A stretch of 64,000 nucleotides of DNA. It comes from Betaproteobacteria bacterium. GTDB taxonomy: Bacteria; Pseudomonadota; Gammaproteobacteria; Burkholderiales; SG8-39. Positions 15,892 through 64,000 of this stretch are shown one piece after another. Positions within the stretch are counted from its first letter, which is position 1. The number at the start of each line of letters is the position of its first letter. The translations under genes and the position numbers were made by a program. The DNA lies in the NCBI GenBank assembly GCA_022340285.1, contig JAJDOG010000096.1:24934-88933 (forward strand), in the 5' to 3' direction. The notes below the pieces were generated by a model. The model did no database searches. It worked only from the letters and a program-made list of their open reading frames with translations, and was not told where the DNA came from.

Positions 15892-16212
15892 TCAATCCCA
15901 TCGATCGTCGCGTACCTCCACGACGCCGTCCTTGACGCGCACCGGAAGCACTGCAGTAGGTTCGTAGGCCGGCGCCGTAAGCGCCTCGCCAGTACGGATG
16001 CAGAAACGCGCGCCGTGACGCGGGCAGATGATCTCGGCGCCTTCCACGGTGCCGCCGGTGAGCTGTCCGCCGTCGTGCGTGCACACGTCCTCGATGGCAT
16101 GAAACGCGCCCTCGAGGTTGAAGACCGCCACCTGCGTGCCATCGACGTCTGCGACGCGATGCTCCCCCGGTCCCAGCTCGGCGACCGGGCAGACCGCCAC
16201 CCAATCACTCAT
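15892..16212 (-). CDS. Rieske [2Fe-2S] ferredoxin (non-heme iron oxygenase ferredoxin-subunit type)
   Basis: Trimmed to the ATG at 16212, which overlaps the upstream gene's stop (ATGA). Rieske ligand motifs CTHDGG … CPRHGARF are present. It is the last gene of the suf operon. Confidence 0.8.
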   Translation of the reverse strand: MSDWVAVCPVAELGPGEHRVADVDGTQVAVFNLEGAFHAIEDVCTHDGGQLTGGTVEGAEIICPRHGARFCIRTGEALTAPAYEPTAVLPVRVKDGVVEVRDDRWD

Positions 16213-56164: not shown

Positions 56165-57138
56165 AACCGGAGAGAGAAATCGATAGCGGGCCCGGCGCCG
56201 GCGTACCGACGAAGCAGAAGGGCGCTGACAAGACTTCCCGGAATCCGGTGAAGGTCGTGGCACGCGGACCCGCGCTCAGAAAGCCCGAATGGATCCGGGT
56301 TCGCGCGGCGGGACCCGGTTCCCGCTTCTTCGAGATCAAGGACATCCTGCGCCGCCATCGGCTTCACACGGTATGCGAAGAAGCCTCGTGCCCGAACATC
56401 GGCGAGTGCTTCGGCAAAGGCACGGCGACGTTCATGATCCTGGGCGATCTCTGCACCCGGCGCTGTCCGTTCTGTGACGTGGCGCACGGGCGGCCGAAGG
56501 CGCCGGACCCGGAGGAGCCACTGCACCTCGCGCAGACCATCGCCGCGTTGCGCCTCTCGTACGTCGTCATCACGAGCGTCGACCGCGACGATCTCCGCGA
56601 CGGCGGCGCCGGACACTTTGCCGCGTGCATCGACGAAGTGCGAGAGCACTCGCCGCACACCCGAATCGAAGTGCTTGTCCCCGATTTCCGCGGCCGGCTG
56701 GACGCCGCGCTCGACATCCTTGCCGCAGCGCCACCCGACGTCATGAATCACAACCTCGAAACCGTGCCGCGACTCTACCGGCAGGCGCGGCCCGGAGCGG
56801 ATTACGCGCATTCGCTCAGGTTGCTCGCCGAGTACAAGTCGGTGCAGCCGGCGGTGCCTACCAAGTCCGGGCTGATGGTCGGGCTCGGCGAGACCGACGA
56901 GGAAATCCTTCAGGTCATGCGCGATTTGCGCGCCCATGGCGTGGACATGCTGACGATCGGGCAGTACCTGCAGCCGTCGGGGCATCATCTCCCGGTGACG
57001 CGGTACGCGCACCCGGACGTCTTCGCGATGTTCGAGCACGAGGCGCGGGCAATGGGTTTCGTGCATGCCGCGGTCGGACCGATGGTCCGATCGAGCTATC
57101 ACGCCGACCAGCAGGCGCACGAGGCGGGCGTCGCATAG
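56161..57138 (+). CDS. lipA: lipoyl synthase
   Basis: Track ORF 56011-57138 trimmed to the ATG at 56161, which overlaps the lipB stop. Both motifs are present: radical-SAM CTRRCPFC and auxiliary-cluster [12 protein letters not shown]. Confidence 0.95.
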
Positions 57139-57200
57139 GGTTCCGCCCCGTGGGTCCCCTCTGGGCGACGCGTTCACGCACCCCTCAAGGGAGTTCTTTC

Positions 57201-57887
57201 ATGCGCCACTTTTCCGTAGCGATCGCTCTCGTCCTGGCGCTCGTCTGCCCGGCCATGGCCGTCACGATCGCCGGCCTCTCGAACCAGGAGGCGGTACGGG
57301 GTTTGAAGGAGGCGTTGGTCCTGGGCGCCGACAAGGCAGTCTCGCAGCTCGGCACGGCCGACGGCTTTCTCGGCAACGCGAAGGTCAGGATCCCGCTTCC
57401 CGATTCGCTACGGCAGGCCGAAAGTGTCATGCGCATGGTGGGCATGGGGGCCCAGGCGGACGAGCTCATCACGAGCATGAACCGCGCCGCCGAGATGGCC
57501 GTGAACGAAGCAAAGCCTCTGCTCGTCGACGCGGTGAAGCGCATGAGCGTCCAGGATGCCAAGGGTATTCTCACCGGCGGCGACGACGCCGCCACGCAGT
57601 ACTTCCGGCGCACGACGTCGGATGCGCTCACTCAGAGATTTCTGCCGATCGTGAAGCAGATGACCGCGCGCGTGAACCTGGCGCAGCTCTACAACCAGTA
57701 CGCCGGCCAAGCGGCGGCGTTCGGCGTCATCGACCCCAAGGACGCCAACATCGACAACTATGTCACGCGCAAGGCGCTCGACGGGCTCTTCCTGGTGATC
57801 GCCGAACAGGAGCGTGCGATCCGCAAGGACCCGGTCGGGGCCGCCTCGAACATCGTGCAAAAGGTGTTTGGAGCGATCGGCAGGTAG
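57201..57887 (+). CDS. DUF4197 domain-containing secreted protein
   Basis: Track ORF 56625-57887 trimmed to the ATG at 57201 (signal peptide MRHFSVAIALVLALVCPAMA). …GLKEAL..G…FLGNAKVRIPLP… matches DUF4197 as I remember it. Confidence 0.7.
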   Translation: MRHFSVAIALVLALVCPAMAVTIAGLSNQEAVRGLKEALVLGADKAVSQLGTADGFLGNAKVRIPLPDSLRQAESVMRMVGMGAQADELITSMNRAAEMAVNEAKPLLVDAVKRMSVQDAKGILTGGDDAATQYFRRTTSDALTQRFLPIVKQMTARVNLAQLYNQYAGQAAAFGVIDPKDANIDNYVTRKALDGLFLVIAEQERAIRKDPVGAASNIVQKVFGAIGR

Positions 57888-57923
57888 CCGCCATGCGGTG
57901 GAGCGAAGCGTCGCTCTCGCGCC

Positions 57924-58715
57924 TCAAATGCGCGGCTCCTCGTCGAGGCGCACCACGATGCCCTCGAGCTCCGCGCTCGGTGCGCGATAGCGCTGCATGA
58001 CGAGCGGATCGTGGCCGGGTACGACGTGCTGCGGCGCCGATGCGAGCTCGCGCAGCCGACGCCAGCCGTCCACCATTTTGGCGACGTCGATGACGATCGG
58101 AAACGGCCGGCCCTGCTCCATGTTGGCGTAGTAGTGGCTCGCGTCGGACGCGAGCACGAGCCAACCCACGCGCGTCCAGACGCGGACGGCCTGCAATCCG
58201 AGCGTGTGGCCGCCGATGCGATGCACCGAGAGGCCCGGCGCCAGCTCGGCGTCGCCATCGTGGAACGTGACGCGCCCCGCGTACACGTTCCGCACCATCC
58301 CGATGACTTCCTCGAGTTCGTAGGCGTAAGCGAAATTCGCGTTGGCCATGTAGCGCCCGGTGGCGAACTGCATCTCGAGGTCCTGCAGATGAAAGGTTGC
58401 GCCGGGGAAGAGGTCGAAGTTTCCGACATGATCGTAGTGCAGGTGCGTGAGCACCACTTGCCCGATCGAGGCCGGATCGACGCCCAACAGAGCCAGGCCC
58501 TCCGCGGGCGAGCGCAGGAATTCGCGCTTGCGCCGGCGTCCCGCGTCACGATTGAAGCCGGTATCGACGACGAAGGTCCCGTTTGCGCCTCGCACCAGCC
58601 AAACGAAGTAATCGAGGCTCGTCGCGATATCGTGCGGGTCGCCGCCGATGAAGTTCTCGGCCGACCGGCGCGCCATGGTCGCATAACGTATCGCGTAGAC
58701 CTCGTATGGCTCCAT
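57924..58715 (-). CDS. MBL-fold metallo-hydrolase, N-acyl-homoserine-lactonase-like
   Basis: 263-aa ORF with HxHxDH (LTHLHYDHVGN) and downstream His/Asp ligands (…GGHTLG…, …SDASHYY…, …PGHDP…). Confidence 0.8.
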   Translation of the reverse strand: MEPYEVYAIRYATMARRSAENFIGGDPHDIATSLDYFVWLVRGANGTFVVDTGFNRDAGRRRKREFLRSPAEGLALLGVDPASIGQVVLTHLHYDHVGNFDLFPGATFHLQDLEMQFATGRYMANANFAYAYELEEVIGMVRNVYAGRVTFHDGDAELAPGLSVHRIGGHTLGLQAVRVWTRVGWLVLASDASHYYANMEQGRPFPIVIDVAKMVDGWRRLRELASAPQHVVPGHDPLVMQRYRAPSAELEGIVVRLDEEPRI

Positions 58716-58782
58716 GGCGGAAAGATTAACCCGCTTCCAAGCGTCCCGCCACCGGCGTGCGCAAGGAGCGTCCGGTGCGATG

Positions 58783-59379
58783 CTAGAGGAGGATGCTGAG
58801 ATTTCGCAGGCTCTGATCGAAATCGATCAGGTTCACCTGCTTCACCCTTATCTCCCAGCCGCCGGCGTGCTCGCTCACGCGGTGAGCGCACCAGCCAGAG
58901 AGGATGCGGCTTTGCTGGGCGCGGAACTCACTGACGAGGAACGTCGAGCGAATCATCCACACCGACGCCTCTGCGGTGCGGAAAACCTCGACGTTCGAGA
59001 CCACGTGGACGGTCCGAGACTGCGGCACCTGCGACCAGGCGTAACCCGTGCGCAGGCGGAAGATCCGGCTTTCCAGCTGTCGTCGGTCGTCGAACACGAT
59101 GGCGACCTCCCGGCGCGGATCGCCGCCGCCGGGCGTTCCGGGCACCCAGTACAGGCACTCGGGCGCGTACAGCGCGAGCCACTCGTCGAGCTGCCCCTGA
59201 TCGAGCAGGCGCGCCTCGCGCTCGAGCAGCGCGCGACATCGATCACGAAGCGCGGGATCTGCCACCGCGAGCTCGTCACGCTGCCAATTGGAAAAGTCGG
59301 AAAAGTCTTTGACGAGGGTCCCGTAGTACGTCTCATCGACGTACCACGATGAAAGTGACGGGTCACGCTCCGGTCGCAT
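58783..59379 (-). CDS. aromatic-ring-hydroxylating (Rieske) oxygenase beta subunit
   Basis: 198-aa NTF2-like ORF placed 9 nt after the alpha subunit (…EWLALYAPECLYWVP…), typical of RHO small subunits. Confidence 0.8.
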   Translation of the reverse strand: MRPERDPSLSSWYVDETYYGTLVKDFSDFSNWQRDELAVADPALRDRCRALLEREARLLDQGQLDEWLALYAPECLYWVPGTPGGGDPRREVAIVFDDRRQLESRIFRLRTGYAWSQVPQSRTVHVVSNVEVFRTAEASVWMIRSTFLVSEFRAQQSRILSGWCAHRVSEHAGGWEIRVKQVNLIDFDQSLRNLSILL

Positions 59380-59388
59380 GCCCCGCCC

Positions 59389-60771
59389 TCACGGCTCGCG
59401 CCGGACACGAAGCGCCGGCCGGGACTGCATGATGCGCCGCCACTCCTTGATGTACTCCCGCATGAACACCTCGTCGGTCGCCGGCGCGGTGATGACGCCG
59501 TTTTCGTCAACCTTGATCCGGCCGGGAATATCCATGCCCCGATGCATGTAGACCCACTCGTCCTCGATGGCGGCAAGCCCCCGCTGGATCTCCTCGAAGT
59601 TTGCCGCGTCGTCGACCTCGCCGAAATTCGGAAAGGATTCCATGGTGCGCATGCGCAGCGCGTTCACGGCGTCGACCGCTCCCTCCAGCTCGCCCGCCTC
59701 GTCGATGACGGCAGTGCCGTGCCACACCAGGTTCGTCTCGTTCACGGCGATGGGCTCGATGACCTGGACGTGATTGCCGAGAATGAGCAGGTTGGGGAAA
59801 ACGTTGATGTTCACGGGCTCCGACGCCGCGAGGTCGAGCGCCCGGTTCGCCTTGTCGCCGAGGCGCTGCCTGATCTCGTTCTCGAAGTACTCCATCCCGG
59901 GATGAGCACCCTCGATCTCCCAGAGCGCGCCCGGGCGCTGCTCGACGTTCGGTCGCTTGTCCTTGAAGTGGTGGCCGTTGCCGAAATACCGGCAGTACAT
60001 CGGCGCATCGTCGGGTTTCGATCGATAGAACGACATGCCTTTCTTCGACTCGTCCGCCAGCCGGTTCTCCATCTCCAGCAGAGAGCGATGCGAAAACACG
60101 ACGTGGTAGCCGTCGCAGGAGTTGTCGTACGCGAGCTTCCAGTTGCCCTGGTATTTGAGACGGTTGGCGCCCGCGAAAACCACCCTTCCGCCCGGGTGGC
60201 GGTCCAGCCATTCGTCGATCGGCTGTGTGACCGGGCCCAGATGCTCGGCAAGCGACGGCGCATCGGCGTTCAGCGTGCCGAAGATGAAACCCCGGTAGCT
60301 CTCCACGCGCGGCACTTGCGCGAGATTGAACTGCGCGTCCTTGAAATCGCACGCGTAGCCGTCGGGCCACGGCACGCCGGAGAGCTTCCCGCTGTTGAGA
60401 TAGGTCCAGCCGTGATACGGGCACTGAAACGCCTTGGCCGAGCCCCGCTCGTGGCGGCAGAGCGTCGTGCCGCGATGCGTGCACCGGTTGTACAGCGCCC
60501 GGATGCCTCCCGCGCTGTCGCGCACGACGATGATGGGACGCAGGCCGAGCCGCGTGGTGACGAAATCGTCGTTGCGCGGAATCTGGCTTTCGTGGGCGAG
60601 ATACACCCAGATCCCGCCGAACACCTTCGTCATCTCCTCCGCGAAGATGCCCGGGTCGGTGTAGATCAGGCGATGGACGCGATCCTCCTGGACGAGGACG
60701 TCCAGATTGCGGCGCGGCGCGGCCTCATCGAGTGTGCCCGGGGGTGCCGCCGGCTGCTCCAGTTTCGACAT
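59389..60771 (-). CDS. Rieske non-heme iron oxygenase alpha subunit
   Basis: 460-aa ORF with the Rieske motif CTHRGTTLC…CPYHGWTY and the mononuclear-iron motif NSCDGYHVVFSH. Confidence 0.88.
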   Translation of the reverse strand: MSKLEQPAAPPGTLDEAAPRRNLDVLVQEDRVHRLIYTDPGIFAEEMTKVFGGIWVYLAHESQIPRNDDFVTTRLGLRPIIVVRDSAGGIRALYNRCTHRGTTLCRHERGSAKAFQCPYHGWTYLNSGKLSGVPWPDGYACDFKDAQFNLAQVPRVESYRGFIFGTLNADAPSLAEHLGPVTQPIDEWLDRHPGGRVVFAGANRLKYQGNWKLAYDNSCDGYHVVFSHRSLLEMENRLADESKKGMSFYRSKPDDAPMYCRYFGNGHHFKDKRPNVEQRPGALWEIEGAHPGMEYFENEIRQRLGDKANRALDLAASEPVNINVFPNLLILGNHVQVIEPIAVNETNLVWHGTAVIDEAGELEGAVDAVNALRMRTMESFPNFGEVDDAANFEEIQRGLAAIEDEWVYMHRGMDIPGRIKVDENGVITAPATDEVFMREYIKEWRRIMQSRPALRVRREP

Positions 60772-60849
60772 CGCGCTTCCCTCTGCCTCTGCGTTTCAGC
60801 CTACGCGCGTGCGCCTCTTGCGTCCAGCGTCGTAAGCGGCCACTGGGAC

Positions 60850-62340
60850 CTAGAAATAATCAAAGTACTCGCTCTGCTCCCACTCGGTCGGCTCGTCGCG
60901 CCAGTCCTGCACGCCGCTGGTCTCGAGGTAGCGCAGGAATCTTCCCGCCTCGTTGCGCTTCAGCTTGAGGAAGTAGTCAAAGAAGATGTCGCCGATCTCC
61001 CGGCGGAACAGGGCGCTCCGCTCGAGGGCGTCGAGCGCATCCATGAGCGAGGTCGGCAGCATGGGGCGGTCGGCAGCATAGGGCGCGAGATCCGGCGGAC
61101 CGGGATCGCGCTCCTCCGAGATGCCGTCGAGTCCCGCAACGACCTGCGAGAGCAGGAAGAGATAGGGATTCGCGGCCGGCTCTCCGGCGCGATTCTCGAG
61201 GCGCGTGCGCGGATCGCCCGCGCCACCGAGGGCACGGATCATCGCGCCCCGATGATCGACGCCCCAGCCGCTGCGGTCCGGCGCGAGCGAGTTCGGGCGA
61301 TAGCGTCTGTAGCCGTTGACGGTGGGCGTGGCAAAGACGGTTGCCGCAACCGCGTGCTCGAGCAGACCCCCGAGAAACGAGCGGCCGAGCGACGATAGGG
61401 ATTCGCCATTCCCTTTCGGCATGAAGAGATTCTTGCCGGTCTGTGCGTCGGCGACCGACTGATGCAGGTGCCAGCCACTTGCGTAGTAGCCCTTCAGGGC
61501 GGGCCGAGCCATGAACGTCGCGAGGAAGCCCATCCGCCGGCAGATCTGCTTCGTCGCCGTGCGGAAGAGCAGCATGTCGTCGGCGGCCTGCAGGGCCGGC
61601 GAAGCGGTGAACGTGCATTCGATCTGACCGGGCCCCCACTCGTTTTCCATGGAACGAAGCGGGAGTCGCAGCGCCTCGAAGGCCTCTTGAAGCGCGGTGA
61701 GCACCGGTTGCATCAAGTCCATGTTCGATTCCGAGTGGTACGCGTAGCCGGGCTCGACTGGATACGTCCGGATCGCTCGCCCCCGCATTCCGGGAGCACC
61801 GACATGCTCCTCGGTCAGGTGTTCCTCGGCGACACGCGTGAGGTACCACTCCACCTCGAGACCGACGACGTAGTCCCTGCGCTCCTCGCTCAGCCGTCGC
61901 AGCTGCCTGCGCAGGAGGTGGCGGGGGGAAAAATGGTAGGCCGCCCCGCTCGTGAAATATTCGTCGCACAGTACCCAGCCGACCTCCGGGGCCCACGGCA
62001 GGACGCGAAACGTGCCGGGATCGGGGACGATCACGATGTTCGGCGAACCGGTCATCTCGTCCAGATCCATGCCGCCGCCGCGCGTGAACGAGCTGAACGT
62101 GCGCGCGCCCGACGCGTCCAGCGTCGTGGTCGCGACGTTGATGTTGTATCCCTCGGCAAGGGCCTCGGTGAACACCGGTATGGTGACCGCCTTGGCGCGC
62201 GCCCAGCCGTGCGGGTCCGCCCATGCGAGGCGAACGAGCCGCAAGCTCTGCTTGCGTACCCGCGCCACAAGCTCCCTGGCCTGCTTCTTCTGGTCCTCCG
62301 ACCAGAGGCCGTGTCTTTCGATGAACCCCTTGCGGGTCAT
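60850..62340 (-). CDS. glutamine-synthetase-family ligase (gamma-glutamyl-amine synthetase-like)
   Basis: 496-aa ORF with GS catalytic-domain features (…NEWGPGQIECTF…, …YYASGWHLHQS…, …NRGAMIR…). This is not the housekeeping GlnA pattern. Confidence 0.85.
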   Translation of the reverse strand: MTRKGFIERHGLWSEDQKKQARELVARVRKQSLRLVRLAWADPHGWARAKAVTIPVFTEALAEGYNINVATTTLDASGARTFSSFTRGGGMDLDEMTGSPNIVIVPDPGTFRVLPWAPEVGWVLCDEYFTSGAAYHFSPRHLLRRQLRRLSEERRDYVVGLEVEWYLTRVAEEHLTEEHVGAPGMRGRAIRTYPVEPGYAYHSESNMDLMQPVLTALQEAFEALRLPLRSMENEWGPGQIECTFTASPALQAADDMLLFRTATKQICRRMGFLATFMARPALKGYYASGWHLHQSVADAQTGKNLFMPKGNGESLSSLGRSFLGGLLEHAVAATVFATPTVNGYRRYRPNSLAPDRSGWGVDHRGAMIRALGGAGDPRTRLENRAGEPAANPYLFLLSQVVAGLDGISEERDPGPPDLAPYAADRPMLPTSLMDALDALERSALFRREIGDIFFDYFLKLKRNEAGRFLRYLETSGVQDWRDEPTEWEQSEYFDYF

Positions 62341-62365
62341 CCCCGTTCGTCTCCTTGCATGCGAC

Positions 62366-63298
62366 TCAGCCGCGCTCCTTCCTGGGAAGTTCGCTTCCCG
62401 CGAGGCGCTCCCAGTGCTTCAACGCCGCCGTGTGATCGGCCGCGCCGCCGAGCTCGCGCTCGGCGGCGGCCCACTCCGCGAGGCAGACCTCGGCGAGCGG
62501 CGCCGGCATCTTGGTCGCTTGCGCCACTTCGAGGGCGATGCGCAGATCCTTGACCATCAGTCCGACCGTGAATCCGGCATCGAACGTGCGCGGCAGGACG
62601 AACTGCGGGAACTTGTTCTCCGTCGAATTGTTGCGACCTGTCGACGCATTGAGAATCGTGACGATCGTCTCGGGTTCGATCCCGAAGCGGGCGCCTGCGA
62701 GCACCGCCTCGGCGGCGGCTGCAAACCCCGCGGCGGAGACGTAGTTGTTCAACGCCTTCATCGCATGCCCGGCACCGAGCGGCCCGGTCGCGAAAACATT
62801 CTTTCCCATGGCCTCGAGCACCGGGCGCACGGCCTCGATCGTGGCGGGATCGCCGCCGGCCATGATCGAGAGCGTGCCGTCGACCGCTTTCCTCACACCG
62901 CCCGACACGGGTGCGTCGAGGAGCGTGATGCCACGCGCCTCGAGCGCCTTTCCGAGCTCGCGCGTGCCGGTCGGCGAGGACGAGCTCATGTCGATCACCA
63001 CGGAGCCGCGTGCGAGCCCGGCGGCCAGGCAGTCTTCCCCGGCGCCCAGCGCGACCCGACGCACGGTGGCGCCGTCGGGCAGCATCGTGATCACCACGCG
63101 GCACGCAGCACCGAGCGATTTAAGGTCAGCCGGCGTTTCGCAGGGAATGTCGGCCGCGAGGCGACGTACCGCTTCGGCACTCGCATCGGCCACCGCCAGC
63201 CCAAAGCCGGCACGCGCGAGATTGCGGGCCATCGGAGCGCCCATCTGCCCGAGCCCGACCAGTCCGATCCGCTCCGGAGCGCGAATGGTTTCAGTCAT
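62366..63298 (-). CDS. NAD(P)-dependent beta-hydroxyacid dehydrogenase (3-hydroxyisobutyrate dehydrogenase family)
   Basis: 310-aa ORF with a Rossmann motif (IGLVGLGQMGAPMARNL) and a 6PGDH-like C-terminal domain. Confidence 0.85.
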   Translation of the reverse strand: MTETIRAPERIGLVGLGQMGAPMARNLARAGFGLAVADASAEAVRRLAADIPCETPADLKSLGAACRVVITMLPDGATVRRVALGAGEDCLAAGLARGSVVIDMSSSSPTGTRELGKALEARGITLLDAPVSGGVRKAVDGTLSIMAGGDPATIEAVRPVLEAMGKNVFATGPLGAGHAMKALNNYVSAAGFAAAAEAVLAGARFGIEPETIVTILNASTGRNNSTENKFPQFVLPRTFDAGFTVGLMVKDLRIALEVAQATKMPAPLAEVCLAEWAAAERELGGAADHTAALKHWERLAGSELPRKERG

Positions 63299-63335
63299 GC
63301 TGCCTCCTCTGCCTGTTCATCCCCTCACTCCTGCA

Positions 63336-64000
63336 TCAATGCGCCTCGTCCCAGTTCCGCCCGACACCGACGTCGACGACGAGCGGCACCCGCAGGTCCG
63401 CGACGCCGCTCATGAGCGCCGGCAGCTCCGTCTTGACGCGCTCGACCTCGGACTCGGGCACTTCGAGGACCAGCTCGTCATGCACCTGCATCACGAGCTT
63501 GCTGGCAAGCGCGCTGGCGTCGATCCAGTTCTGCACGGCGATCATCGAGAGCTTGATCAGGTCCGCTGCGGTACCCTGCATCGGTGCGTTGATTGCGGCG
63601 CGCTCGGCGCCGGCGCGGCGTTGGGGGTTCCCGCTCCGGATTTCGGGCAACCAGAGCCGACGTCCGAAGACGGTCTCGACGCATCCCGCCTCGCGCGCCT
63701 GCATGCGAGTGGACTCCATGTATTTGGCGACGCCCGGGTAGCGGGCGAAATAGCTGTCGATATACGCCTGCGCGGTCGCCCGCTCCAGTCCGAGCTGCTG
63801 CGCGAGTCCGAATGCACGCATGCCGTAGATCAGCCCGAAGTTGATGACCTTGGCGTAGCGGCGCTCCTCGGACGTCACCTCTGCCGGGTTCCTGCCGAAG
63901 ATTTCGGCGGCGGTGGCGCGATGCACGTCCTGGCCCTCCGCGAACGCCCTCAGCAGACTCTCGTCCTCGGAAATGTGCGCCATGATCCGTAGCTCGATCT
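63336..64000 (-). CDS. polA: DNA polymerase I, C-terminal part; 5' end lies beyond the right window edge
   Basis: The reading frame stays open to the window edge (…IELRIMAHISEDESLLRAF…). Family A polymerase motifs …QVHDELVLEV… and the C-terminal …VGVGRNWDEAH are present. The ATG at 63983 in the track is internal. Confidence 0.9.
   Translation of the reverse strand, partial: IELRIMAHISEDESLLRAFAEGQDVHRATAAEIFGRNPAEVTSEERRYAKVINFGLIYGMRAFGLAQQLGLERATAQAYIDSYFARYPGVAKYMESTRMQAREAGCVETVFGRRLWLPEIRSGNPQRRAGAERAAINAPMQGTAADLIKLSMIAVQNWIDASALASKLVMQVHDELVLEVPESEVERVKTELPALMSGVADLRVPLVVDVGVGRNWDEAH

Follow-up and report, generated by a model that had tools for sequence, protein, structure and literature searches.

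A ligase-oxygenase trio of the arylamine dioxygenase type and a separate dehydrogenase-lactonase pair at a variable polA site of a betaproteobacterium

We analyzed a stretch of 64,000 nucleotides (hereafter, the window) from the assembly GCA_022340285.1 of Betaproteobacteria bacterium (contig JAJDOG010000096.1, positions 24,934 to 88,933), in which five genes lying between polA and a convergent DUF4197 gene bring together a glutamine synthetase (GS)-like ligase, the alpha and beta subunits of a Rieske oxygenase, an MBL-fold hydrolase and a HIBADH-type dehydrogenase. On balance we favour the view that this cluster combines two units conserved independently of each other, the ligase-alpha-beta trio and the HIBADH-MBL pair, placed in a variable spot between polA and DUF4197, with the trio being of the arylamine type. 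The trio is an uncharacterised, stripped-down relative of the known arylamine dioxygenase systems and not a five-gene pathway, and the site is a small variable islet in which the dehydrogenase-lactonase pair has the trio between its members. The features of this region are as follows:

62366-63298, minus strand: HIBADH-type beta-hydroxyacid dehydrogenase, 310 aa (Pfam NAD_binding_2 and NAD_binding_11)
60850-62340, minus strand: GS-like gamma-glutamyl-amine ligase ('GoaS' clade), 496 aa (Pfam Gln-synt_C, E 5e-72)
59389-60771, minus strand: Rieske oxygenase alpha subunit, 460 aa (Pfam Rieske and Ring_hydroxyl_A)
58783-59379, minus strand: Rieske oxygenase beta subunit, 198 aa (Pfam Ring_hydroxyl_B, E 2e-33)
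57924-58715, minus strand: MBL-fold lactonase-like hydrolase, 263 aa (Pfam Lactamase_B, E 2e-18)
63336-64000, minus strand: C-terminal portion of polA, bordering the variable site on the left (Pfam DNA_pol_A, E 9e-93; NCBIfam PRK05755)
57276-57887 (start approximate), plus strand: convergent DUF4197 gene, bordering the variable site on the right (Pfam PF13852)

The first-pass annotation of this DNA had described five co-directional minus-strand genes with characteristic motifs and short gaps, and all of them were recovered in the open reading frames (ORFs), Pfam matches and translations. From the coordinates, the intergenic gaps along HIBADH, ligase, alpha, beta and MBL are 25, 78, 9 and 67 nt, and HIBADH is separated from polA by 37 nt. 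The ligase holds the motifs SGWHLHQS and NEWGPGQIECTF, the alpha subunit holds CTHRG...CPYHGW and DGYHVVFSH with the Rieske Cys/His ligands and the iron motif intact, and the MBL protein carries a metal motif of the HxHxDH type (HLHYDH). None of the five proteins reached an NCBIfam equivalog cut-off. Gene content also bore out the annotation's remark that no amidotransferase, reductase, ferredoxin, regulator or transporter gene is present within the cluster.

Relationship of the ligase and oxygenase to arylamine systems

The GS-like protein and the Rieske subunits proved to be, as had been proposed, genuine relatives of the components of aniline, chloroaniline and 1-naphthylamine dioxygenases. 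The best PDB match of the ligase, covering its full length (residues 3-494, E 3e-147), is 8WWU, the structure of NpaA1, with which Pseudomonas sp. JS3066 gamma-glutamylates 1-naphthylamine and anilines (PMC11335346); the next PDB matches are ordinary glutamine synthetases with E values of 1e-45 or worse. The ligase is 44% identical to NpaA1, 47% to DcaQ and 45% to the Rhodococcus gordoniae ligase. Among annotated plasmids, the best matches to the ligase (45-49% identity) and to alpha (42-54%) fall largely in the same records, which hold the dca/tdn/npa clusters of Delftia, Comamonas, Variovorax, Achromobacter and Pseudomonas JS3066, together with related clusters of Rhodococcus and Nostoc. Additionally, the ligase adjoins a two-subunit Rieske oxygenase homologous to AtdA3A4, whose alpha subunit is 47% identical to DcaA1, 43.5% to NpaA3 and 53.5% to the Rhodococcus gordoniae alpha, and whose beta subunit shows 43%, 38% and 46% identity to DcaA2, NpaA4 and the Rhodococcus gordoniae beta, respectively. 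Sequence comparison thus assigns the ligase-oxygenase couple to the arylamine type. The alpha subunit also carries cationic residues specific to its clade (H268, K270, K272, H334, H410 and R418).

The first-pass annotation had asked for a phylogenetic placement of the GS-like protein. In a maximum-likelihood tree, the window ligase falls together with its orthologues into a group that also contains NpaA1, DcaQ and the Rhodococcus enzyme, and a long branch parts this group from the GlnA proteins of relatives and from E. coli PuuA, to which the ligase is 27% identical; a clustering with GlnA is thereby ruled out. In agreement with the tree, the ligase reaches 197.5 bits against the GlnA equivalog TIGR00653 (cut-off 429) and 226 bits against the PuuA equivalog NF045547 (cut-off 650). 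These data make it extremely improbable that the protein is an ordinary ammonium-assimilating glutamine synthetase whose adjacency to an oxygenase is meaningless. Such an explanation could appeal to the canonical glnA, which was not found in the 120-contig assembly, where PF00120 matched only two GS-like genes. However, canonical GlnA is present at about 460 bits in 20 of the 20 relatives searched, and because these include six same-genus genomes and genomes without the trio, its absence here is most likely an assembly gap. Furthermore, the gene is linked to alpha and beta in 77 of the 81 loci described below.

Conservation of the trio

To define the distribution of the trio, alpha was searched against one genome per prokaryotic species, which gave 282 genomes with a match at a loose first pass, and the counts refer to the best 80 of these 282 matches (68-92% identity) plus the window, that is 81 loci. 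The 80 loci come from Burkholderiales, Xanthobacteraceae, Rhodospirillaceae/Defluviicoccus, Nitrosovibrio and others, nearly all of them metagenome-assembled. The carriers amount to at least 80 species-level genomes of Alpha- and Betaproteobacteria, mostly uncultured and living in soil, marsh and sediment, and alpha remains about 70% identical across classes. The beta gene directly follows alpha in 77 of the 81 loci, the other four being contig ends. The ligase gene lies directly upstream of alpha in 68 loci and within 10 kb in nine more, and is missing despite enough room in one. Clustering of all other neighbouring ORFs yielded no further family in more than 14 of the 81 loci. Of 200 other genomes from the window's own family, 18 carry an alpha orthologue, the count by genus being 5 of 34, and the trio is therefore an accessory module. 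A search of the literature found no paper describing this trio clade.

tblastn searches with the amidotransferases DcaT, NpaA2 and Rg_GAT gave no match in any of the 81 loci, and the same was true for the reductase DcaB, the Rhodococcus ferredoxin Rg_Fdx and the reductase encoded on contig C1 of this genome; a ferredoxin-reductase (FdR)-like gene lies near the trio in two loci. The best amidotransferase matches in this genome, on contigs C119 and C45, are 30-33% identical. Because amidotransferase and reductase are absent across the 81 loci, the three-gene layout is the norm of the whole clade and not a peculiarity of the window. The trio without these two components, noted earlier from the window, is accordingly seen in the neighbourhood survey as a tightly conserved unit. 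An amidotransferase-free layout is compatible with function, since the Npa system can do without NpaA2: its dioxygenase acts directly on gamma-glutamyl-1-naphthylamine, and a reductase is still required (PMC11335346).

Recurrent neighbours of the trio include TctABC, TcuA, TRAP and MFS transporters, amidase, isochorismatase and Amidohydro_2 proteins. A PcaB-like lyase lies near the trio in nine loci, and a set of DSBA, SDR, FAD hydroxylase and cupin genes in about ten. An attempt to read the substrate from gene context assigned no pathway, the neighbours being this heterogeneous.

The dehydrogenase and lactonase genes as a separate pair

In the survey of trio loci, the MBL and HIBADH genes accompany the trio in 3 of the 81 only, all of them close kin, namely the window and the two loci most closely related to it (L009 and L010; identities of 86-89% and 82-83%). 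The three share the order HIBADH-ligase-alpha-beta-MBL, with inserts between beta and MBL on the opposite strand in the two relatives (TRAP transporter genes in L009 and a methyltransferase in L010). The MBL protein is widely distributed on its own at 60-90% identity, and ligase, alpha and beta are absent from 82 of the 82 loci with an MBL orthologue, 80 of which are metagenomic. Among the 58 loci whose sequence extends far enough upstream of MBL, 18 have an HIBADH orthologue (53-69% identity) immediately before it in the same orientation, as do 10 of the 15 with an MBL identity of at least 70%; a CMD-family gene precedes the pair in nine cases, and in locus L100 the MBL gene is overlapped by a dehydrogenase 68% identical to the window HIBADH.

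The site between polA and DUF4197 is itself variable. In two same-genus genomes (G107 and G046) polA and DUF4197 are only about 0.7-1 kb apart with no cargo, in another (G090) HIBADH stands there alone, and in a related metagenomic contig (L102) MBL adjoins DUF4197 without the trio. It is because these sites are empty, hold only HIBADH or hold MBL without the trio that we describe the spot as a variable islet and its content as composite; we infer either an insertion of the trio into the pair or the arrival of the block as a whole. On the DUF4197 side, where PF13852 matched with E 1e-77 on residues 218-416 of the ORF at 56625-57887, the gene order DUF4197-lipA-lipB is retained in relatives. 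The cargo of the islet differs between loci, with L009:12010-15700 encoding a confirmed DctM-family protein, L102:356-3187 opposite-strand TRAP-like genes and L010:11719-12432 the methyltransferase.

All this bears on the first-pass view of the five genes as one co-conserved pathway, in which HIBADH and MBL would process the oxygenase product or MBL would remove the glutamyl group. We judge this unlikely, although the two closest relatives have all five genes at this site, the genes are tightly packed in one direction, and different hydrolase and dehydrogenase genes (Amidohydro_2, GFO/DRL-type oxidoreductase, SDR) stand beside the trio in some other genomes. Against it, MBL and HIBADH are adjacent without the trio in many metagenomic loci, opposite-strand genes split beta from MBL in the two relatives that share the arrangement, and the pair is found with the trio only among close kin. 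A role of MBL in deglutamylation is likewise not needed, as the characterised Npa system dispenses with its amidotransferase and uses the gamma-glutamyl arylamide directly (PMC11335346). The data therefore do not support deglutamylation by MBL or a dedicated dehydrogenase step. The annotation had also allowed for accidental adjacency if the five genes were not co-conserved elsewhere, and this holds for MBL and HIBADH, because the pair adjoins without the trio elsewhere and the same-genus site is empty or HIBADH-only, whereas the trio itself is co-conserved throughout the survey.

Regarding the two proteins themselves, the best equivalog of HIBADH is 2-hydroxy-3-oxopropionate reductase (237 bits, cut-off 397), and MBL scores 52-60 bits against the AiiA, AhlS and 4-pyridoxolactonase models (cut-offs 325-475). 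The best PDB match of MBL, at 78 bits, is 8X78, a 'glyoxylase, beta-lactamase superfamily II' protein for which our literature search found no paper. In a Steroidobacteraceae contig, an MBL orthologue (74%) overlaps the end of a LigA-LigB extradiol dioxygenase pair, within a meta-cleavage cluster that also has CHMI, aldehyde dehydrogenase, DHDPS-like, FAA hydrolase and MarR genes. Going by this LigAB-embedded orthologue, the MBL family may act on a lactone formed by ring cleavage. In the closest long-contig relative, the HIBADH orthologue is split into two overlapping frames of 179 and 131 aa (L005:9008-9939 / L010:7299-8281; G014:C9:942640-943562), which may reflect a pseudogene with a frameshift or a homopolymer error of long-read sequencing.

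The amine tunnel of the ligase

In NpaA1 the amine tunnel and pocket are formed by the loop V68'-M81', with F75', together with F86', W235, M81 (W81 in AtdA1) and V201 (PMC11335346). We compared these positions, in NpaA1 numbering, in 62 orthologues of the window ligase, using an alignment without gaps across these segments. The catalytic residues E232 and E234 as well as F86 are invariant, and position 235 is Trp, Phe or Tyr. The remainder of the tunnel is changed: F73, F74 and F75 are replaced by Thr (or Ser), Thr and Leu, M81 by Arg in 61 of the 62 orthologues, V201 by Tyr, L202 by His in 60 and L203 by Ser in 58, and positions 66, 67 and 69 are Tyr, Asn and Asn. The hydrophobic set is kept at all these positions by NpaA1, DcaQ and the Rhodococcus ligase, and mostly by the Nostoc ligase. 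Thus, of the hydrophobic aromatic tunnel (F75, F86, W235, M81/W81), only F86 and W235 are kept in the window ligase. Because Thr, Asn, Tyr, His and an invariant Arg replace Phe, Met and Leu in the tunnel, the ligase would probably act in nature not on aniline but on an arylamine of polar or anionic character, for instance an aminobenzoate, an aminophenol or an aminosulfonate.

These same changes, with loss of the Phe triad and gain of Arg, His, Thr and Asn, could instead indicate a non-aromatic polar amine as the substrate of the trio, or a hydroxylation of the gamma-glutamyl amide without nitrogen release in an Ipu-like manner, with the Rieske oxygenase replacing a P450. We regard this as a minority possibility that deserves some weight, as carboxylate-type transporters (TctABC, TRAP) are frequent beside the trio and no clear catechol 1,2-dioxygenase was found in this genome. 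In favour of an arylamine, alpha is 43-53% identical to proven arylamine dioxygenases as compared with 29-33% to the other ring-hydroxylating oxygenases of the genome, the aromatic residues at positions 86 and 235 of the ligase are maintained, and aromatic-catabolic neighbours, including a PcaB-like cycloisomerase, an FAD aromatic hydroxylase, a cupin and VanA-like oxygenases, are seen in several loci.

Electron supply and ring cleavage

The first-pass annotation had suggested searching the remaining genome for ferredoxin and reductase partners, and this search gave candidates in trans on three contigs, and none in the cluster:

C1:47152-48432: Fer2-FAD-NAD reductase with class IB domain order, candidate in trans
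C116:7735-8049: soluble Rieske ferredoxin, candidate in trans
C69:3441-4661: ferredoxin reductase, 40% identical to the Rhodococcus aniline-dioxygenase reductase, candidate in trans

Additionally, the window itself has a Rieske-domain ORF of about 195 aa at 15946-16206, minus strand (G000:C50:40879-41139), which is a possible candidate electron donor for orphan Rieske oxygenases. As for ring cleavage, the inventory of the genome comprises one divergent intradiol enzyme and several LigB-type enzymes, and does not discriminate between possible products. In a sample of 201 family genomes, LigB-type protocatechuate 4,5-dioxygenase occurs in 11 of the 19 with the trio and in 69 of the 182 others, a weak and kinship-confounded co-occurrence of which we made no use.

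Signals of expression and regulation

The DNA of the window is present in salt-marsh and marine-sediment metagenomes. In a salt-marsh metatranscriptome (run X24), one contig of 228 nt perfectly matches positions 60510-60737, within alpha, and leaves the rest of the cluster uncovered; it is a weak hint of alpha expression, as DNA carry-over is possible, and carries no operon information. A promoter scan of 57000-64000 gave no promoter-like site, and a terminator scan of the same interval gave three terminator-like sites against 3.4 expected, an uninformative number, with none predicted between the five genes. Moreover, a search of 71 loci for the sigma-54 consensus TGGCAC-N5-TTGCW, allowing up to one mismatch, gave no match within the 350 nt that precede the ligase, and there is therefore no support for an Ntr-type regulation.

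Proposed function of the trio

By homology, the ligase would attach the amine, a polar arylamine, to the gamma-carboxyl of glutamate in an ATP-dependent manner, and the alpha/beta oxygenase would then oxidise the gamma-glutamyl amide, with electrons that would have to come from a reductase or ferredoxin encoded elsewhere. The product would be of the catechol type by analogy with the known systems, with the nitrogen leaving on the glutamyl moiety, presumably as glutamine. HIBADH and MBL would constitute the second unit, and no evidence indicates that they act on the product of the trio. In a broader and more tentative proposal, the trio may serve as a natural catabolic and nitrogen-salvaging module for a biogenic anionic or polar arylamine (4- or 3-aminobenzoate, an aminophenol or an aminosulfonate), yielding a catechol-type product, passing the nitrogen into glutamine and drawing on a shared reductase; this widespread chromosomal clade could then have been the natural pool from which the plasmid-borne xenobiotic aniline dioxygenases arose.

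Several points weigh against the composite, arylamine-type reading. The five genes of the window run in one direction, lie 9-78 nt apart with no terminator predicted between any of them, and are probably co-transcribed, so that a recruited functional link between the two units is possible. The heterogeneous neighbours of the trio in other genomes point to no downstream pathway. The polar pocket of the ligase could fit a non-aromatic amine equally well. Lastly, the proposed substrate class, product and fate of the nitrogen are extrapolated from systems that are 43-53% identical.

Comparison with known systems

The Npa system of Pseudomonas sp. JS3066 and AtdA1-A5 of Acinetobacter sp. YAA have, like the trio, a GS-like gamma-glutamyl-arylamide synthetase followed by Rieske alpha and beta subunits, and the catalytic E232/E234 and W235 of NpaA1 are kept in the window ligase. 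In contrast to them, the trio cluster has neither the glutamine amidotransferase (GAT)-like NpaA2/AtdA2 nor the reductase NpaA5/AtdA5, and its tunnel has T/T/L, R, H and S instead of F73-F75, M81, L202 and L203. The location also differs, since Npa and Atd reside on IncP catabolic plasmids flanked by IS elements, whereas the trio is chromosomal in uncultured soil and sediment bacteria. The best plasmid matches are the Dca/Tdn clusters (QTA1A2B) of Delftia pNB8c, Comamonas and Variovorax, which have the Q-(T)-A1-A2 order in common with the trio; neither the window nor any of the 81 orthologous loci has their T (amidotransferase), B (reductase) or LysR regulator gene. The closest alpha in an annotated cluster (53.5%) is that of Rhodococcus gordoniae pDND3A (cf. 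Rhodococcus ruber R1), where a ferredoxin, an FAD reductase, two amidotransferase-type genes and catA are also present, none of which adjoins the trio. A three-gene set is found as well on plasmid pn1 of Nostoc sp. UHCC 0926 (L091:5811-9491; ligase 48%, alpha 53%), a region unannotated in its record, where the neighbouring ORFs of at least 90 aa include neither an amidotransferase nor a reductase. Unlike the trio, it has the order beta-alpha-GS, a hydrophobic tunnel (F73, F75, M81, L202, L203) and a transposase and an integrase at its flanks.

A further system to be considered is SadABCD of Hydrogenophaga intermedia PBC, in which SadA is not known to have a beta subunit. In this 4-aminobenzenesulfonate 3,4-dioxygenase, the GS-like SadB aids a Rieske oxygenase acting on an anionic arylamine, and no amidotransferase is named in the operon (PMC5632844). 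The Sad operon has its own ferredoxin and reductase, which the trio does not, and its layout resembles not the trio but the second GS-like/Rieske pair of this genome. That second pair (C118:43191-45968; L095:5189-7969) consists of a GS-like ligase of 482 aa followed after 28 nt by an alpha-only LigXa/VanA-type Rieske oxygenase of 434 aa; the identity of this ligase is 50% with DcaQ and 47% with the window ligase, and it has orthologues in same-genus genomes.

Taken together, the trio shares the ligase and oxygenase with the Npa, Atd, Tdn and Dca systems and departs from them in three defining features, namely the amidotransferase, the dedicated reductase and the hydrophobic tunnel. A practical consequence for annotation is that the adjoining MBL and dehydrogenase genes are not to be read into the pathway of the trio. 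To our knowledge, glutamylation-dependent Rieske dioxygenases are known almost only from degraders of man-made anilines, and aniline degraders carry these genes on plasmids as five-gene sets, whereas the minimal core of ligase, alpha and beta described here is chromosomal and, as a module, highly conserved. Identifying its amine, probably a polar one, would show on what the aniline dioxygenase family acts in nature, and possibly from where it evolved, and might also reveal a route feeding arylamine nitrogen straight into glutamine.

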